64,000 nucleotides of DNA from a virus. Taxonomy: Duplodnaviria; Heunggongvirae; Uroviricota; Caudoviricetes. Of the stretch, positions 8,647-54,286 are shown in pieces. Under the pieces are notes generated by a model, which saw nothing but the letters and a program-made list of their open reading frames with translations, did no database searches and was not told the DNA's origin. Every line of letters starts with the position of its first letter. Within the stretch, counting starts at the first letter, position 1. The position numbers and the translations under genes were made by a program. The stretch covers positions 214,479-278,478 of the IMG/VR virus record IMGVR_UViG_3300021400_000025; one strand, written 5' to 3'.

Positions 8647-8677
8647 TATTTACTATTTTTATGTATAATTGTAAATA
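8647..8677. promoter_or_regulatory. Divergent late-type promoters (GTAAATA on both strands) with an overlapping TATAAT
   Basis: tatttac at 8647-8653 and gtaaata at 8671-8677 between divergent genes; resembles the T4 late promoter TATAAATA. Confidence 0.55.
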
Positions 8678-8743
8678 ATAAAGGTTGATTGAGACTGCCA
8701 TCCCAACCAACCTGAATCATTCAAGATATACGAGGTATCTCAA

Positions 8744-10051
8744 ATGACTAAAGAAATTATACAATATAGTAAAGAAGAACTCAGGCAATTATCCAATTTG
8801 GAATTGCTTGACCGAATCAATCAAGTTGATGTTGATGTTGTTCATCTCGCCCGCTATTTGAAGAGTCATTGTGGCGAATTATTTGAAGAATTGGTTTTTC
8901 GTACCAGGTTTCTTGACAACAATTATAAACATATTCCAATAATGGCAAGGTTATATTGTCTGAGAAACAACATTGTTGAACAACCCAAATGTCGTCTTCA
9001 AGGATGTGATAATAATGTTGAATGGGATTGTGGTGCACAATCTTTCAGAAAATACTGCTGTCATCAACATTTTCTTGATGACCCAACAGTGCAGGATAGA
9101 AGAGAGCAAACAATGCTTGAAAGATATGGTGTCAGAACTCCAATGGAATCAGAGGAATTCAAACAACATGCCAAAGAGGTTTGCATTCGTGAATTTGGTG
9201 TTGAAAATAATGGACAACGAGAAGATGTAAAGGAGAAAATCAAACAAACGAACATGAAGAGACACGGAGCAAAATCATTTGTGGAGAGCGATGAATTCAA
9301 AAAGAAGTCTCAACAAACTTGTCGGCGCAAATATCAGGTTGATCACATATTGCAAAGTACTGAATTTAGAAATAGAATACAGCAAATCTGCAAAGAAAGA
9401 TATGGTGAAAGAGTTCCATTTAGAGTAAAGGAAATCCAGGAAAAAGCAAAAACGACATATAGAAAACTATATGTTGACGACGAAAACGGAAAACAATCAG
9501 TTAATCAGAAGAGAAGAACCACCATACAAGCAAAGTATGGAGTGAATCATCAGATGGAATTGGATTCGGTGAAAGAACGAATAAGGGAGACAAACAATGA
9601 AAGATATGGGGTTGATTATTATTCACAAACAAATGAATTTCACAAGAAATGTCATAAGCGATACACCAATCCAAAGTACCCAGACATGTCATGGGCAGAT
9701 TCTTGGGAATTCAAGGTATATGACTTCTTGACAGAACATAACATTCCATTCGAGTATCAGATAGAACCAATTCCATATGAATATGATAATGGAATTCATT
9801 ATTATCATCCAGACTTCAGGGTGAATGGCAGAATCTACGAGGTCAAAGGCGACAACTTCTTTCGCATCAACGGGGAAACTGGCAAGGAGGAGATGTATAA
9901 AACTTGGAGAGATCCAAACATTTCAGACGAAGAATATGAATGGCAATGTGGCAAGGAAGAAGCCAAGCACCAGTGCATGATTGCCAATAATGTCAAAATA
10001 TTGAGGAAGAAAGAGATAGACAATCTCACTGTTGAATTGTTTCTATCCTAA
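8744..10051 (+). CDS. Putative homing endonuclease: (K/R)YGV helical repeats plus C-terminal PD-(D/E)XK domain
   Basis: Repeated TxxERYGV units; C-terminal DSWE...YHPDF...IYEVKG. Confidence 0.75.
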   Translation: MTKEIIQYSKEELRQLSNLELLDRINQVDVDVVHLARYLKSHCGELFEELVFRTRFLDNNYKHIPIMARLYCLRNNIVEQPKCRLQGCDNNVEWDCGAQSFRKYCCHQHFLDDPTVQDRREQTMLERYGVRTPMESEEFKQHAKEVCIREFGVENNGQREDVKEKIKQTNMKRHGAKSFVESDEFKKKSQQTCRRKYQVDHILQSTEFRNRIQQICKERYGERVPFRVKEIQEKAKTTYRKLYVDDENGKQSVNQKRRTTIQAKYGVNHQMELDSVKERIRETNNERYGVDYYSQTNEFHKKCHKRYTNPKYPDMSWADSWEFKVYDFLTEHNIPFEYQIEPIPYEYDNGIHYYHPDFRVNGRIYEVKGDNFFRINGETGKEEMYKTWRDPNISDEEYEWQCGKEEAKHQCMIANNVKILRKKEIDNLTVELFLS

Positions 10052-15994: not shown

Positions 15995-16948
15995 TTATAC
16001 ATCAGAATTGGTTTCTTGTAAAGGATATTTCTTGTTCCACTCTTCTATTCGTTTCAGTAGTTCTTCTAATGTTATTGAACACGAGTCTCGTTTTGAAGCA
16101 TTATCGCATTGACGAACTAATCTACAGTTTGCAGGATGTGATATTATTTTGGGGTCTATGTTATTCAAAAAACCTTCCTTTACTGAATACATGTGGTCAC
16201 GGGAAACACCACCCATATTGTTTCCACGGTTCTTTGCTGAATACCAACCGTGTTCTTCAATTAATTTGAAGTCAAACTCATCTGGAAATTGGTTAAGTGA
16301 AAATGTAAACCTACATAATTCTCTATACCGAATGAGACGCAACTTATATTTTTCTTCGTCTGAAAGTCCATCCATATTTTTAGGAATATAGTTCTTAATT
16401 TTTAATCGTCCAGACTTAAATCCTTCTTTAAGGGTTTTTTGAACCTGTTCAGAATGGGCTTTAACTCTAATGTCAGTGGTCTTTGTTAATCCTTTGTTCC
16501 ACGCAACACATTTTTGTCCATTATAATGTTCTTCTCTATAATGTGAATTTCTTTCAGCCCTTGTCCTAAATATTTTACCACAAGTTGAGCATTTCCAATC
16601 TCCCTTTGCTCTACGTTTGTTATGGATATTGCTTTGGTTAAAGAATGCCGAGGTAAATGTTCCGTTTTTCAATTTGGTTTCATATGAATGTTTTCCTATT
16701 ACATGCATCCTACATTTTTTAGAACAGAACCTACCTGTGCCATAAGAACCATCATGCTCGTTGTTGCAATCTGGATTTTCACACTTGAACAATCCATTTG
16801 GAAGTCTGCGTTTATTTCGTTCTTCCTCAAGAAGTTTTAGATGAACTTTGCATTTTGATTGATGTCCAGTCATCTGGTTCAATCGTTCAAATTCTTTACC
16901 ACATTCACAGACAAATAGTCTGTGTTTTTCTTTACATTTATCACACAT
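15995..16948 (-). CDS. Zn-finger-containing putative HNH-type homing endonuclease
   Basis: C2H2-like fingers, EHDGSYGTGRFCSKKC, AWNKG, C-terminal SRDH...HPANC...N. Confidence 0.7.
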   Translation of the reverse strand: MCDKCKEKHRLFVCECGKEFERLNQMTGHQSKCKVHLKLLEEERNKRRLPNGLFKCENPDCNNEHDGSYGTGRFCSKKCRMHVIGKHSYETKLKNGTFTSAFFNQSNIHNKRRAKGDWKCSTCGKIFRTRAERNSHYREEHYNGQKCVAWNKGLTKTTDIRVKAHSEQVQKTLKEGFKSGRLKIKNYIPKNMDGLSDEEKYKLRLIRYRELCRFTFSLNQFPDEFDFKLIEEHGWYSAKNRGNNMGGVSRDHMYSVKEGFLNNIDPKIISHPANCRLVRQCDNASKRDSCSITLEELLKRIEEWNKKYPLQETNSDV

Positions 16949-17026
16949 ATTATTTTTACCTTTTTGTTTCTGAAGTCATGTCCGTGACTCCATAAAAGTA
17001 TTTACTTTAATTATACATAAAAGAAA

Positions 17027-17052
17027 AGACCATAGGCGGACACCTATGGTCT
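17027..17052 (-). terminator. Intrinsic terminator of the tRNA island (loop UGUCCG)
   Basis: AGACCATAGG-TGTCCG-CCTATGGTCT followed by TTTCTTTT. Confidence 0.8.
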
Positions 17053-17062
17053 AACTTTAGAT

Positions 17063-17506: not shown

Positions 17507-17858
17507 TCCAAAAGGTTCTCGTTGAAATGGCAGTTTTCACAGTGGCAAGATTTGTTCATCCCAGGGATTATGCCATGCACGGCCAACACATTAAGATGCC
17601 TTGTTAGGGACATGCGCCATCAACGAGGTTTTGCGCAAATTGGGCAGGATTTGCTTTTCCGGGGTCACCTGCGTTCTCCCCAACCGAAGACCCACTAGGG
17701 GCTTTTGATGTTTCTCGTTCGGCACCCAACTGGAGGATGGCGATACACGCAGTAGGCTACGCTGCTCCCTGGATCAGATGTTCCCCCAGCTCAGCCCAAC
17801 ACGTTCTTGGGACTTCACCAACGGCCGATTCGTCTACGTCCTGTTGGCTTGCAAATAA

Positions 17859-18000
17859 GGCCGTGCATCTGGGAGTCGAACCCAGCGTCTTGGCAGATTC
17901 AGCGGCCGCTCTCCTCTGCCCTGTTCTCTTGGACAATATCTCCACACATTTTCACTGCTTAAGACAGCTCCAATGCATCCTTATTTGAACTATATGCACG
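17859..18000 (-). ncRNA. Expanded tRNA-like RNA
   Basis: CGTGCAT/ATGCACG acceptor, CTGGG-TTCGACT-CCCAG T-arm, and a large insert in place of the anticodon arm. Confidence 0.55.
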
Positions 18001-18009
18001 ATAGAAATG

Positions 18010-18128
18010 GCGTCTGTGATATCCCACAATTGACTTCAACCAACACGTCGGGATTCGAACCACGGTCTCACTCTTCGTGTATTCTGCCTTTTTGAACTAT
18101 TCGTGTCTAATCTTCATGTGACAGACGC
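18010..18128 (-). ncRNA. YrlA/Y RNA-like tRNA mimic
   Basis: Terminal GCGTCTGT/ACAGACGC helix enclosing a D-loop-like arm and a GGTTCGAATCC T-arm. Confidence 0.55.
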
Positions 18129-18141
18129 ACATTGAAATGGT

Positions 18142-18181
18142 GTGTTCGCTTTTGCAAACAAGTGTTCGCTTTTGCAAACAA
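18142..18181. repeat. 20-nt tandem duplication (gtgttcgcttttgcaaacaa x2)
   Basis: Exact direct repeat. Confidence 0.8.
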
Positions 18182-18774
18182 CCGTAAATGGTGGACCCGT
18201 TTTACAGTGGCGCGGCCCATTCTTCTTCCTACCCACCAACCCACTGCATAGTAGCATCCTTTCCTTCCTCAGGTGATTGTCCACCGTCTTTGTGGGACGC
18301 AACCGGCAACTACTTCCAATGCTCACTCCAAGTGTTTCCAATGGAGACTCAATGGATATGGAGAATCATATTTCGGGTGCTGCCCGTTTGCTTTGTAAAT
18401 ATGACCTCACCGGTCTGCGCTTGCTGCAACAAATCCAATTCTCAAAGAACAACACGTTAATTATACGCCATTGCCCTGTTTTTGTAAAGTGGAAGTTTCC
18501 AACTCAGGAGACTTTTCCATTCGAGGACTATGGATGTCCAATCATTTGAGTTTGACCAGACATGCCATAGACTTCACTCAATTATCCACAAGAATGTACT
18601 CACGAACCATCGTTGGAAACGTTCAGGATTCTTGAGATTTGTTTTACGCCACACAGGCAACCCAACCAGAATCCCACAGGGATTGGGTACTTGAAAATGG
18701 AGTGAACGATGGGTGCCGCCCCCACTTAATCCAACCTGGCAGATTGGTGAACTGCTGATGTTCCACGTTCACAT

Positions 18775-19711: not shown

Positions 19712-19967
19712 ACAAAAATCGTGTGGTCTACCCGGTTTTGCCCGGGTTTCATGCTTCAACATTCCAACCTTGCTTGGTTTTCGCTTTCATGATTTGGTTG
19801 GAACTCCACACGCATGTCGTTCGCAACAGCAAACGATCCCTGCGACCCACAGGTACTCAAAATCACATTCAATTGTCAAAGAACAACCTTTGTCTGATGC
19901 TTAAGCATTATCTGATGCGCAAGCATCATTCGATGCGCAAGCATCATTCAAAGAACCAACAAACCAA

Positions 19968-42843: not shown

Positions 42844-44121
42844 TTACTTGCAGTCAAGCGCGTAAATGGGGCAACTTGTGGAACACTTGTTGCATTTTCG
42901 GAATCCATTGAGCATCTTGTCGGTTGCCCATACATCCATCAACTTCGTGTTCCCATTGAGCAAGTCAATCGCGGAATCCTCAAATACATGCTCCACGAAA
43001 CTGCATGGGGTGATTTTCCCCTCAACGTTGCAGTATATCGAAATTCTTGCTGATTCACAAGGCTCGATTGAGGTGCATAGATGGGACTTCCCCATTTCAA
43101 CCAGAATGTCCTGGACATTGTGCCCATTGCAGGAGTCAAACCCAAACGAAATGTCGTTGTCAAGGCAGAACTTCATCACCTTGGTCAGATTTTCCTTGGA
43201 GAGACTGCAATCAAGGTTCTTCGCTCGTCCAACCGGCTTTGCGTGGAGCATGACAACGGACTTAAGTCCAGGAACCTTGCCATCCTTGATGTCGTTCAGA
43301 ACATCCATTATGTGCGTCATGGAGAAGTCGGCTATCACGATGTGCATGTTCACAGACATGTTTCGCTTGAACTTCTCCCTTGCTGTGTCATGGAGTTTCT
43401 TGATGGTGTTGTAGCAAAGGTCTTTCGCCTTGTCATAGCAACTGACTGCGCAAGCACCACAATACTGGCACAGGACATCCGTCATTTCATCGTCAAGGTC
43501 TGCTCCTGTCAAGGTGAGGTTTCCAACAATGCCATATTCACGGAGCCACTTCAACATGTCTGCGAGATATGGATTGGACTTGACCCCAGTGATGCCAAGC
43601 GCAACTTGGGACAGGTTTCTCGGAAATCCCATCACAATCTTCTTGAACTGCTCAAGGGTCATCACCTTGCCAGCGGCAGAGGTGTTGTTCTTGTAGCACC
43701 AACGGCAATTTTCTGAATTCACCTTGGGGCAAGAACCAGTCACCACTTCAATGTCCGCGATTTCCGGCCCGAGTGGACACCATGATGGGTCATCCTCAAA
43801 GGTCTTGCCCATTCGCACGTTGAACCCAGTTGTCTTGTTGAAAATCTGGAAGTAGTCAAGCTGGGACGTGTTGATGACGAACTTGTGCGTGTCGGTGTCC
43901 ACCACAGCCCATTCGCTCACAACGCCATCCACTTCCCTTCTGTAAATCTGAATCCTCGCGTCCTTCACGGAAGCTGGCGTGAAGTTGGCATATGCCTTTG
44001 GGTCTGGCATGGACTTGGCGTCGAAACTCTGCCTCACGTATTCGTTGAAGCACCTTTCAACCACCAACCTGATTTCCTCAGACATCTTCTTGGATGCCTC
44101 TGTTGCCTCTTCTGCTGTCAT
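42844..44121 (-). CDS. Radical SAM protein with a SPASM/twitch-like C-terminus
   Basis: C-X7-C-X2-C variant motif (CPKVNSENCRWC); CESAR..YCNVEG...PCSF. Confidence 0.8.
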   Translation of the reverse strand: MTAEEATEASKKMSEEIRLVVERCFNEYVRQSFDAKSMPDPKAYANFTPASVKDARIQIYRREVDGVVSEWAVVDTDTHKFVINTSQLDYFQIFNKTTGFNVRMGKTFEDDPSWCPLGPEIADIEVVTGSCPKVNSENCRWCYKNNTSAAGKVMTLEQFKKIVMGFPRNLSQVALGITGVKSNPYLADMLKWLREYGIVGNLTLTGADLDDEMTDVLCQYCGACAVSCYDKAKDLCYNTIKKLHDTAREKFKRNMSVNMHIVIADFSMTHIMDVLNDIKDGKVPGLKSVVMLHAKPVGRAKNLDCSLSKENLTKVMKFCLDNDISFGFDSCNGHNVQDILVEMGKSHLCTSIEPCESARISIYCNVEGKITPCSFVEHVFEDSAIDLLNGNTKLMDVWATDKMLNGFRKCNKCSTSCPIYALDCK

Positions 44122-50682: not shown

Positions 50683-51309
50683 TCATGATATTGCATGTGC
50701 CTTTCGTTTCAGCATGAGAACGCCAAATCCAATTATACATAGAAGGGATGTGGATGGTTCTGGAACAGAATGATATGACATTGGCTTCCAATCAGTAACT
50801 GGTGGGTTCAGGTCAAATGTCGGATACATATGCGCCATAACTTGCTCATATGTGTATTTGTCGGATTCAGCCAAAACTTGAAATGCTCCAGACATATATG
50901 TATCGTCATCCCAGTCCATTCTGCCAAGTTCAATTGAGAACAAGGCTTCCATCCCAAGTTCGGTTGGAACATGAGATTGTTGATAATCTATGCCATAGTA
51001 ACCACTTCCTGAATCTCCTACCCAAACACCTAAGTGTCCACCACCAACATCCAATTCATATGCGCTTGTATCTTCGTTGTACTAATAGTTGTCAAGATAT
51101 ATCGGAGAAGTCAATCCTCCCCCACTTATCTTCACCCTTGCTGCTGGATTATGCAAATCATCATCTGGAACAGGTGAAAGAAACGTATATACAGATGATT
51201 CTCCATCAACTGTGGCATCACCATCAACTGTCCACAACAAAACATCTCCGCTTCCATTCAAGAAAGCGAGGCATGCAATCAATATGGCAACAAGTCTCTT
51301 CTTCATCAT
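50683..51309 (-). CDS. PEP-CTERM sorting-domain protein; TAG read-through
   Basis: Signal peptide MKKRLVAIL..., C-terminal VPEPSTSLLCIIGFGVLMLKRK; halves joined at TAG 51082. Confidence 0.8.
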
Positions 51310-53036: not shown

Positions 53037-54014
53037 TCACAAGTCATCCTTGCCAATGCAAAGATTGTCGTCAAATGCGCATTTGCCCTCGATGAAGTCA
53101 TGATACTGCTTGTGGATGAAGTATATCTTCTTCTCAGGATGTTGTTCGACAACCAATCTCATCTTCTCTCTATCTGAATCTGGATATCCACCCTTGACTT
53201 CAACATAGATGTCTCTGTCTGGAATATATAGGTCAGGAATATAGTTGTGCCAATAGTCCTTGAAATACTTGATTGGAGCAGCTTTCACCCACAATATGCC
53301 AAGTGCGTTCAACCTCAATGCCACATTCTCCTCCCAATGTCCCCGAACAGAGAATTCCTTGCCCTCTATGTTCTTTACTTTGTACCACTTCACCTTCACA
53401 TGCTCCTTATTGAGGTACTGGTTCATGACTTGTTCAGCACGTTTGGCAGAGATTTTTTGGCGGGTTTCAAGAGTGTGCTTGTGAGACACAACTGATATAT
53501 GTATCTCTCCCCTTGCATATTTTTCTGAGAATTTTCTTCCTTGTCTCTTGTGCATTTCATCGTGTTCCGCCTTATTTGGATGATTAGGGCAATTAACCAT
53601 ATGTCCACCAGCTCCTCTACCACTATCAAATTCTTTCCCACAATAACGACAAACATATTTCCCATCATCTGTAATAATACATCCACTATGTACAACTCCA
53701 TGTACATTAGCCATATGTTTTTTCAGTTGATTGCGTGTATCTAATATCATTCCACACAATTTACACTTCCAAGTTCCATACGGAGATTTTGCATGGACTT
53801 TACCTTCTGCCCTCAATTTGTCAAGATGAGCCTTGACTTTTGGATTATTTGCGCCTCTATTTTTACTCGCAATATATTCAATCTTACATTCCTTTGAGCA
53901 AAATCTTCCTGAGCCATAGGTGTGGTCATGTTCTTTTCCACAGTATTCACAAGGCTTGTCCTTGTTCGCAAGGCGTTTCTATGCCATTGCTTTACGATAA
54001 CGTTCTTTGTTCAT
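53037..54014 (-). CDS. Zn-finger-containing putative PD-(D/E)XK homing endonuclease; TAG at codon 12
   Basis: ATG at 54014, TAG at 53979; EHDHTYGSGRFCSKEC, C2H2 fingers, YIPDLY...VEVKG. Confidence 0.75.
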
Positions 54015-54097
54015 ATTATTTTTACCTTTTTGTTAACGGAGTCACCCCACGTGACTTCGCATTATCTATTTACAATTATACGATTTTTTAGCAAAAG

Positions 54098-54130
54098 AAA
54101 GCCATATAGGCGTGGGGCCTATACGGCTTT
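54098..54130 (-). terminator. Intrinsic terminator after the suppressor tRNA (loop CCCCACG)
   Basis: AAAGCCGTATAGG-CCCCACG-CCTATATGGCTTT-CTTTT. Confidence 0.8.
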
Positions 54131-54135
54131 ACGGG

Positions 54136-54208
54136 CTGCCCGTGAAGGAGTCGAACCTTCCCCCCAGGTTTTAGAGACCTGTGCGCGAGACCGGCACGCA
54201 GACGGGCT
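54136..54208 (-). tRNA. Amber suppressor tRNA (anticodon CUA), probably Gln-charged
   Basis: CAGGT-CT-CTA-AA-ACCTG anticodon arm; GAAGG-TTCGACT-CCTTC T-arm; 1:72 mismatch and G73. Confidence 0.88.
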
Positions 54209-54286
54209 GTTGAAACTTGTGTCTCGTTTCTCTCGTCACATTCAATTATACAAAAAATGGTTGGAACTTTCGCATGAACCAACCAA

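Follow-up and report, generated by a model that had tools for sequence, protein, structure and literature searches.

The stretch of DNA analysed here (64,000 nt; the window) is part of a complete virus record of 418 kb whose genome encodes a gp55-like late sigma factor (phrog_234, E 2.6e-19), a portal, a head protease, a DNA polymerase, a clamp loader and UvsX; by these genes the phage is a T4-like jumbo phage. Many window ORFs are open when TAG is read as glutamine, a tRNA with a CTA anticodon is also present, and the window holds 32 tRNAs (ARAGORN) and a tmRNA. Public runs containing parts of the phage DNA are recorded as animal gut metagenomes. One window ORF (50683-51309, minus strand) ends in VPEPSTS and a hydrophobic stretch; this end resembles the PEP-CTERM sorting signal, a possible hint to the host group.

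Two loci on the minus strand share one layout, in which a tRNA is followed by a terminator-like hairpin (hairpin 1), a promoter-like box, a second hairpin (hairpin 2) and the gene of a putative homing endonuclease. The parts are as follows.

18460..18488, minus strand: sigma-70-type promoter TTTACA-17-TATAAT, read from the sequence, then boxA-like TGTTCTTTGAGAA
17063..17137, minus strand: tRNA-Thr(TGT), last of five tRNAs upstream of locus 1 (ARAGORN; not among the Rfam gathering hits)
17052-17027, minus strand: hairpin 1 of locus 1, AGACCATAGG-TGTCCG-CCTATGGTCT (sequence, folding)
17042-17037, minus strand: loop of this hairpin, UGUCCG, closed by G-C pairs
17026-17018, minus strand: U-rich tail of hairpin 1, scored terminator-like
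17010..17016, minus strand: GTATAAT box without a -35 element, a candidate middle-type promoter
16999..17005, minus strand: GTAAATA box, a presumed late promoter with a start predicted at ~16993, at the base of hairpin 2
16971..16992, minus strand: hairpin 2 of locus 1, TGGAGTCA-CGGACA-TGACTTCA, loop at 16984-16979
16949..16970, minus strand: A-rich leader with AAGG (16962-16959), matching locus 2 almost letter for letter
15995..16948, minus strand: P0001, a putative homing endonuclease of 317 aa, ATG at 16948 (ORF, domain evidence)
54133..54209, minus strand: tRNA of locus 2 with a CTA anticodon, amber-suppressor type (ARAGORN, which labels it Pyl)
54098..54130, minus strand: hairpin 1 of locus 2, loop CCCCACG at 54117-54111, then a U-rich tail
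54067..54081, minus strand: composite GTATAATT-GTAAATA promoter-like box of locus 2
54040..54056, minus strand: core of hairpin 2 of locus 2, loop CGUGGGG at 54051-54045
53037..54014, minus strand: P0002, a putative homing endonuclease of 325 aa, ATG at 54014, one in-frame TAG

The P0002 frame is open only with TAG read as glutamine. Both copies of hairpin 1 carry terminator-like tails, with 6 and 7 U of 8. Folding z-scores are -3.6 for locus 1 and -5.25 for locus 2, but the opposite strand folds as well (-3.1 and -4.4), and folding alone therefore cannot assign the strand. A contig of DNA run X2 spans 16943-17054 with two differences and is an independent copy of the locus-1 element. In RNA runs X3 and X5 locus 1 is not covered by any contig, and in X3 the same is true of locus 2, although contigs cannot show absence.

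Two sigma-70-type promoters lie in the tRNA cluster on the minus strand (19995-19967 and 18488-18460), each followed by a boxA-like sequence (TGTTCTTTGACA at 19885 and TGTTCTTTGAGAA near 18450); judged by eye, both are like the boxA of rRNA leaders. The second promoter is likely the nearest source of transcripts reaching locus 1. Between tRNA-Met and tRNA-Gly there is an unannotated stretch (17666-18424, minus strand) covered by RNA-run contigs from two studies (X3, 17666-18424; X5, 18084-18419). It has no Rfam match at E<=5, the whole region folds no better than shuffles, and an X2 DNA contig omits 17853-18007 within it.

The initial annotation had claimed that the two loops of locus 1 are exact reverse complements, and that the layout recurs at locus 2 with loops that differ but are again complementary. 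Both statements are confirmed: UGUCCG faces CGGACA at the first locus and CCCCACG faces CGUGGGG at the second. Scanning the 418-kb genome for a GG-loop-CC hairpin with a complementary hairpin loop downstream gave three matches, the two loci and one inside a gene at 43735; five shuffled genomes gave 0, 0, 1, 1 and 2.

The further claim, that selection acts on the pairing, is strongly supported by a blind test and by compensatory changes in homologous loci. About 160 related loci were fetched, two alignment scans having given the best 80 of 239 and the best 80 of 167 confirmed stretches. Complementarity upstream of homologous genes was the check that the initial annotation itself had proposed: among 122 distinct upstream regions, 46 had a candidate hairpin 2, chosen blind to its partner, and an exact complement was present in an upstream hairpin loop in 22 of the 46 cognate cases as against 12 of 2,064 non-cognate combinations. 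Another search, whose rules were set after the element had been seen but remained blind to complementarity, yielded 47 candidates. Thirty-five pair perfectly, L103 does so with its second-ranked hairpin, and L122 pairs with one G·U; the 10 without complementarity were dropped as non-cassettes. The resulting set comprises 37 cassettes with 23 different loop sequences (36 with perfect pairing, one via a G·U wobble). Pairing was not detectable in many close relatives (68 of 118 rows labelled none, a label that includes a few cassettes missed by the rule).

Each loop position has its highest mutual information with its partner column; at position 1 one other column reaches the same value. An alignment of 26 six-nucleotide cassettes contains two-sided changes in 6/6 kissing pairs and in 6/7 hairpin-2 pairs, and kissing pairs are 100% paired versus 27-57% in slid controls; the aligned cassettes had been chosen for complementarity, the blind test being that of the 46 candidates. 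Loop positions 3-6 are very variable (1.3-1.65 bits) within invariant flanks, part of which had served to select the cassettes. The two loops always lie 52-85 nt apart. In L122 the loops UUCUAG and CUGGAA, with their wobble, form the expected intermediate between the perfect pairs of L028 and of the second L137 copy, and hairpin-2 stems contain 11 G·U as against 4 A·C; this intermediate and this excess argue that the pairing acts in RNA rather than in DNA. To judge by its sequence, then, the element is a genuine leader, with covarying kissing loops, of putative homing endonucleases.

The proteins behind the element are varied. P0001 and P0002 have a common N-terminal zinc-finger module (with HDGSYGxGRFCS in P0001) and different C-terminal domains. 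That of P0002 is a Phage_endo_I domain (PF05367, E 3e-8, above the cut-off); for P0001 there is weak evidence of an HNH-like domain. No Pfam nuclease domain was found in P0001, and a PDB sequence search returned zinc fingers only. Its structure model (pLDDT 92.6) gave nothing in Foldseek at E<=0.001, the first 20 rows being HNH domains or HNH-bearing Cas9 chains (best E 0.25), and its Atlas neighbours include HNH-named clusters. Within the zinc-finger-module family nuclease domains are freely swapped (DUF559 in 20/52, Phage_endo_I in 14/52, NUMOD3 in 5/52), and the cassette also heads unrelated HNH-type genes (L195, L199, L114 and the first copy in L137, labelled HNH from a visible motif rather than a family scan). 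A tree of the N-terminal module, made by a quick method, left 60 of 113 branches open and is too weak to order the leader types. The locus-1 nuclease ORF also contains two near-consensus sigma-70 promoters (16547-16520 and 16022-15994, minus strand) aimed at downstream genes, which resemble the promoters embedded in T4 seg and mob genes in the parts of PMC2988022 drawn on here.

Which loop a cassette carries is not tied to its protein: loops differ within protein pairs of 88-89% identity, and TTCGCG stands before a zinc-finger nuclease as well as before an HNH-type gene. For this reason we reject an operator role and a guide role. The operator role belongs to a reading that places the element in DNA, as inverted operator half-sites of the I-TevI type for the nuclease or as crossover spacers by which the promoter would be inverted. 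The promoter is indeed flanked by a sequence and its reverse complement, and autorepression by I-TevI is documented (PMC2988022, same parts). However, the arms of the two sites differ, kiss and stems contain G·U wobbles, and the flipped arrangement occurs in 0/37 cassettes, the search having taken the standard orientation; no strand-switch joint is listed in the run contigs, which drop rare variants. This possibility is largely refuted and we hold it to be extremely improbable.

The guide role, in which the RNA would serve the nuclease as a cofactor, is taken together with that of a new self-cleaving ribozyme, which would trim tRNA 3′ ends. Hairpin 1 begins within 25 nt of the tRNA end in 24/36 cassettes, and theta ribozymes sit at this very place in recoded gut phages, according to the portion of PMC10879173 used here; like them, the cassette is a structured RNA directly after tRNAs, suppressor tRNAs included, in TAG-recoded gut phages. 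Unlike the theta ribozymes of that account, it lacks an HDV-type fold, includes a promoter-like box and is followed by a nuclease gene. A theta (HDV-like) ribozyme, with the HDV double pseudoknot and its catalytic cytosine, was rejected, the alignment consisting of two hairpins and a kiss, with no Rfam match in the window or in 15 loci. Nor is there a match to any other Rfam ribozyme or a conserved unpaired core between the hairpins apart from the promoter box; the distance to the tRNA end varies (2 and 4 nt at the window loci, up to 17 nt among the 24 near copies), and most family members do without the RNA. A catalytic or guide role is very improbable.

The initial annotation had also treated hairpin 1 as a tRNA 3′-trailer hairpin. 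Cassettes, however, stand behind tRNAs of 14 different anticodons, and copies with one and the same loop can follow different tRNAs, so that hairpin 1 belongs to the mobile nuclease cassette and to no particular tRNA. Its description as a terminator fits both window loci, yet strong terminators are not found everywhere, at least 6 U in the 8-nt tail being present in 10/36 cassettes; in L119 and L124 hairpin 1 lies upstream of a separate terminator-like hairpin. Further same-strand tRNAs follow downstream in 15/36 cassettes, which makes transcription through these cassettes plausible. In T-box-like sensing the loop would match the anticodon of the associated tRNA; this was rejected, as TTGCAG stands behind Thr, Leu and Arg tRNAs and CTA tRNAs precede both CCCCACG and TTCGCG. 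An orphan hairpin 1 in L188 (1201-1221, minus strand) follows a tmRNA-like gene and is itself followed by GTATAATT, without TAAATA, hairpin 2 or nuclease; no TAAATA-linked partner loop was found in its complete 414-kb genome, and it is likely a relic. Just upstream of the L089 cassette, in a tRNA-Tyr region, lies a sub-threshold group I intron match (156-395, E 6e-4). Among bacterial and archaeal genomes, 0/50 matches to the hairpin-1 pattern had a partner loop; in a second viral scan, at least 75 unique matches were among those listed, seven with a partner, of which six were known cassettes and one was not in a hairpin.

A TAAATA-like box lies between the hairpins in 36/36 cassettes (it was the search anchor; L135 has a variant), and hairpin 2 begins 2-10 nt after it in all 36 (median ~4-5). 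Across the genome, which is 10% intergenic, 75 of 117 GTAAATA occurrences are intergenic (controls 2/9 and 1/16) and 77 of the 117 lie within 120 nt of a start codon. Named genes behind the motif include a head protease, an endolysin, a tape-measure-like gene, a portal and endonucleases. Since PHROG names are lacking for most such genes and GTATAAT alone precedes one tail gene, the late status of the motif is presumptive; the factor for which TAAATA likely serves as promoter is the gp55-like sigma of the phage. GTATAAT is found before replication genes and in about half of the cassettes (20 counted). A -35 element (TTGACA-like, 5-6 matches) accompanies 33/59 other intergenic GTATAAT sites versus 0/20 cassettes.

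Ten of 63 family ORFs, as against 1/69 genome genes, have TAAATA exactly 5 nt before the ATG, six directly and four via the first of two overlapping boxes (L017, L018, L106, L108, L123, L126, L128, L130, L132 and L133, mostly without a Shine-Dalgarno (SD) sequence). These are candidates for leaderless late mRNAs, an alternative way of restricting nuclease expression; our literature search returned no paper matching leaderless late nuclease mRNAs of this type. If they are leaderless, transcription starts 5 nt downstream of the box. In cassettes this point coincides with the base of hairpin 2, so that late mRNA would have hairpin 2 at its 5′ end and be free of hairpin 1.

Similar boxes stand before other genes. 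Four homing-endonuclease-like genes of phrog_3339, a family other than the zinc-finger-module family of loci 1 and 2 (window 8671-8744, plus strand; G000 5569, 313450 and 418045, minus strand), have a composite TATAATT-GTAAATA box and then a similar sequence with hairpin potential (AGGTTGATTG...CAACCAACC). TnpB-like transposase genes (phrog_506) lie directly behind a GTAAATA box in L203 (12452-13708) and L209 (6047-7321).

Where the element stands relative to the ribosome-binding site (RBS) limits what it can do. Hairpin 2, and with it the kiss, ends 17-22 nt before the AUG in most copies (range 11-29). In folding models, which cannot score pseudoknots or tertiary contacts, the median energy for opening the SD window is 1.4 kcal/mol in read-through RNA, with both loops tied up, versus 0.45 in late RNA; the difference is at least 1.4 in 5/36 cassettes as against 23/35 ordinary genes, and the SD region is predicted to be more open in cassettes than in ordinary genes. 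Linkers pair with their cognate RBS no better than with non-cognate ones (mean rank 0.50) and no better than shuffled linkers do (7/36 at 0.1 or below); at locus 1 a weak 7-bp extension over the SD is possible. The open SD region of these models and the non-specific linker pairing do not support sequestration of the SD by kiss or linker, and silencing, if any, must therefore be steric or nucleolytic. By a rough straight-helix estimate the linker allows the loops to meet in cis in 33/36 cassettes and is short in 3/36.

Family members without the kiss suggest how related leaders work. A cognate-specific stem reaching across the box onto the start region is found in 15/68 non-kissing family loci versus 3/57 ordinary GTAAATA genes. 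In L134 and in the two close relatives L096 and L097 the anti-RBS lies in the loop of a terminator-like hairpin after a tRNA, with duplexes of -24 to -29 kcal/mol:

L096 and L097, ~1400-1495; L134, ~1360-1485: anti-RBS terminator-like hairpins, the anti-RBS pairing being mutually exclusive with the terminator stem

This form lies between the plain stem and the kiss. Sequestration of the SD is predicted in L083, L086, L096, L097 and L134. One protein family thus apparently has four solutions: plain stem, anti-RBS terminator loop, loop-loop kiss and leaderless start.

The sister stems and anti-RBS loops match what is said of the I-TevI, segB and mobE leaders in the parts of PMC2988022 and PMC3014915 drawn on here, and the comparisons that follow refer to those parts. 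Like the T-even leaders (I-TevI, I-TevII, I-TevIII, segB and Aeh1 mobE; PMC2988022), the cassette places its nuclease gene in a longer transcription unit, among tRNAs as with segB, and has a promoter-like box between the pairing partners, so that the structure could form only on RNA initiated upstream. An endonuclease gene follows, to judge by PF05367 in P0002 and the family domains, its homing nature being putative, and motifs of the late or middle type lie between the partners. Unlike those leaders, the cassette pairs loop to loop between two hairpins and not in one stem, it takes its 5′ partner from the tip of a terminator-like hairpin, it varies from copy to copy in the paired sequence, and its kiss leaves the SD uncovered. 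Like seg43(25) of Aeromonas phage 25 (PMC2988022), it has a stable hairpin upstream of, and not over, the endonuclease RBS; section 12 of that paper describes seg43(25) without a partner hairpin or loop-loop pairing. The cassette most likely works like the T4 late-restriction leaders without being one of them by structure.

The hairpins, the covarying loops, the box, the fixed geometry and the transfer between tRNAs and nuclease families are established at the level of sequence. From these we envisage a mobile leader of free-standing putative homing-endonuclease genes in T4-like jumbo phages. Hairpin 1, as a leaky terminator, would first lower read-through. In those transcripts that read through from the tRNA operon, and only in these, the loops would kiss, and the resulting pseudoknot would block ribosome docking by its bulk or mark the RNA for cleavage, without covering the SD. 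Late in infection a gp55-like sigma would read TAAATA and start transcription 5 nt downstream; such transcripts, beginning at hairpin 2, would escape the kiss and be translated, and the nuclease would be made only from its own late promoter. Silencing of read-through RNA in cis, by steric block or decay, is a reading in which we place slightly more belief than doubt. Against it, the SD stays open in the models and linker pairing is not specific, so that the silencing step itself is hypothetical; pairing goes undetected in many close relatives; and GTATAAT, if an active middle promoter, would give an mRNA free of hairpin 1 before late times. In the initial annotation's proposal, control of the nuclease keeps its place as the likeliest purpose; the kiss does not sequester the RBS, the SD window being open in the models. 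Of the two branches of that proposal, read-through fits the sister genes, which use cis stems, better than a processed small RNA does, and nothing positive spoke for the latter.

The trans version would have hairpin 1, cut from an abundant tRNA precursor, act as a small antisense RNA that binds hairpin 2 on nuclease mRNA and sets a threshold; the variable loop would be a private code, of the lock-and-key kind, operating among paralogous cassettes or among phages that co-infect a cell. Antisense RNAs that act in trans typically recognise their targets loop to loop: in the plasmid systems CopA/CopT and RNAI/RNAII, recognition involves 6-7 nt loops whose sequence varies between family members, as it does between the two hairpin loops of the cassette. 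Unlike in those systems, the cassette hairpins lie on one strand within 85 nt, there is no antisense gene and complementarity is largely confined to the loops; a cis-encoded antisense RNA of the CopA/CopT type was rejected, as both hairpins are on the same strand and the stems are not mutual complements. Further points in favour are the high variability of loop positions 3-6 inside invariant flanks, the short cis linker in three cassettes by the rough estimate given above, the possibility that GTATAAT yields early mRNA lacking hairpin 1, and the different loops carried by cassettes of the same contig in 6/6 pairs (window; L002/L021/L026; L001/L023; two in L137). But with 23 loops in 37 cassettes two random copies would share a loop only ~3% of the time, and 0/6 shared loops is what chance predicts. 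The constant 52-85 nt spacing, the orphan hairpin of L188 and the cis stems of sister genes also count against trans action. We consider such a trans-acting trailer unlikely, and give the same low credence to a tRNA 3′ trailer serving as a private sRNA with its 6-7-nt loop code under diversifying selection. If true, the code would let a phage act in trans to silence the nucleases that it encodes itself or those that a co-infecting relative brings in, and homing would be the object of an arms race at the level of RNA.

The opposite effect is also conceivable: after cleavage of the tRNA 3′ end the pseudoknot could protect the new 5′ end or aid ribosome loading, the nuclease thereby borrowing strong tRNA promoters. 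The open SD region of the kissed form, the weak U tails of many copies and the tRNAs downstream of 15/36 cassettes agree with this, and leader structures improve initiation in T4 genes 38 and 25 (PMC3014915, parts used here). However, both window copies have terminator-like tails, every cassette has its own promoter-like box, and in the nearest structural relatives (L096, L097 and L134) it is the RBS itself that becomes paired, an indication of repression. We judge stabilisation or activation decidedly unlikely. Quite improbable, in our view, is a protein platform, in which the kissed structure with its CA/AC internal loop would be the operator of a repressor from phage or host. The pseudoknot of gene 32, with an A-rich open leader next to it, is such an operator for gp32 (PMC3014915, same parts). 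Positions around the loop are invariant in 23/23 copies of the commonest subtype, which has the internal loop, some of these positions having played no part in selection, and an A-rich open leader likewise follows. But the internal loop is absent from both window copies and seven others (9/36 classed as 'other'), and the downstream proteins come from unrelated families, which makes the nuclease itself an unlikely binder.

The initial annotation called the device undescribed, and for the structure this agrees with what we found: Rfam has nothing over the element in the window, nor in 15 loci at E<=1, and no description of it was found in the literature listings and abstract openings searched; the 10,006 candidate viral RNAs of PMC10690425 may include it. 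The logic, on the other hand, is known from T4 homing endonucleases, as set out in the parts of PMC2988022 drawn on. As a phage RNA the element is uncatalogued, and its covariation is unusually clean. Under the favoured reading, silencing of read-through RNA in cis, it would extend the T4 rule that homing endonucleases stay silent on read-through RNA to a structure unable to hide the RBS. Four side-by-side solutions in one family make the mechanism of an upstream, non-occluding structure, of which seg43(25) is a comparable case, directly testable, and the 23 natural loop pairs constitute a ready set of candidate orthogonal RNA-RNA switches.
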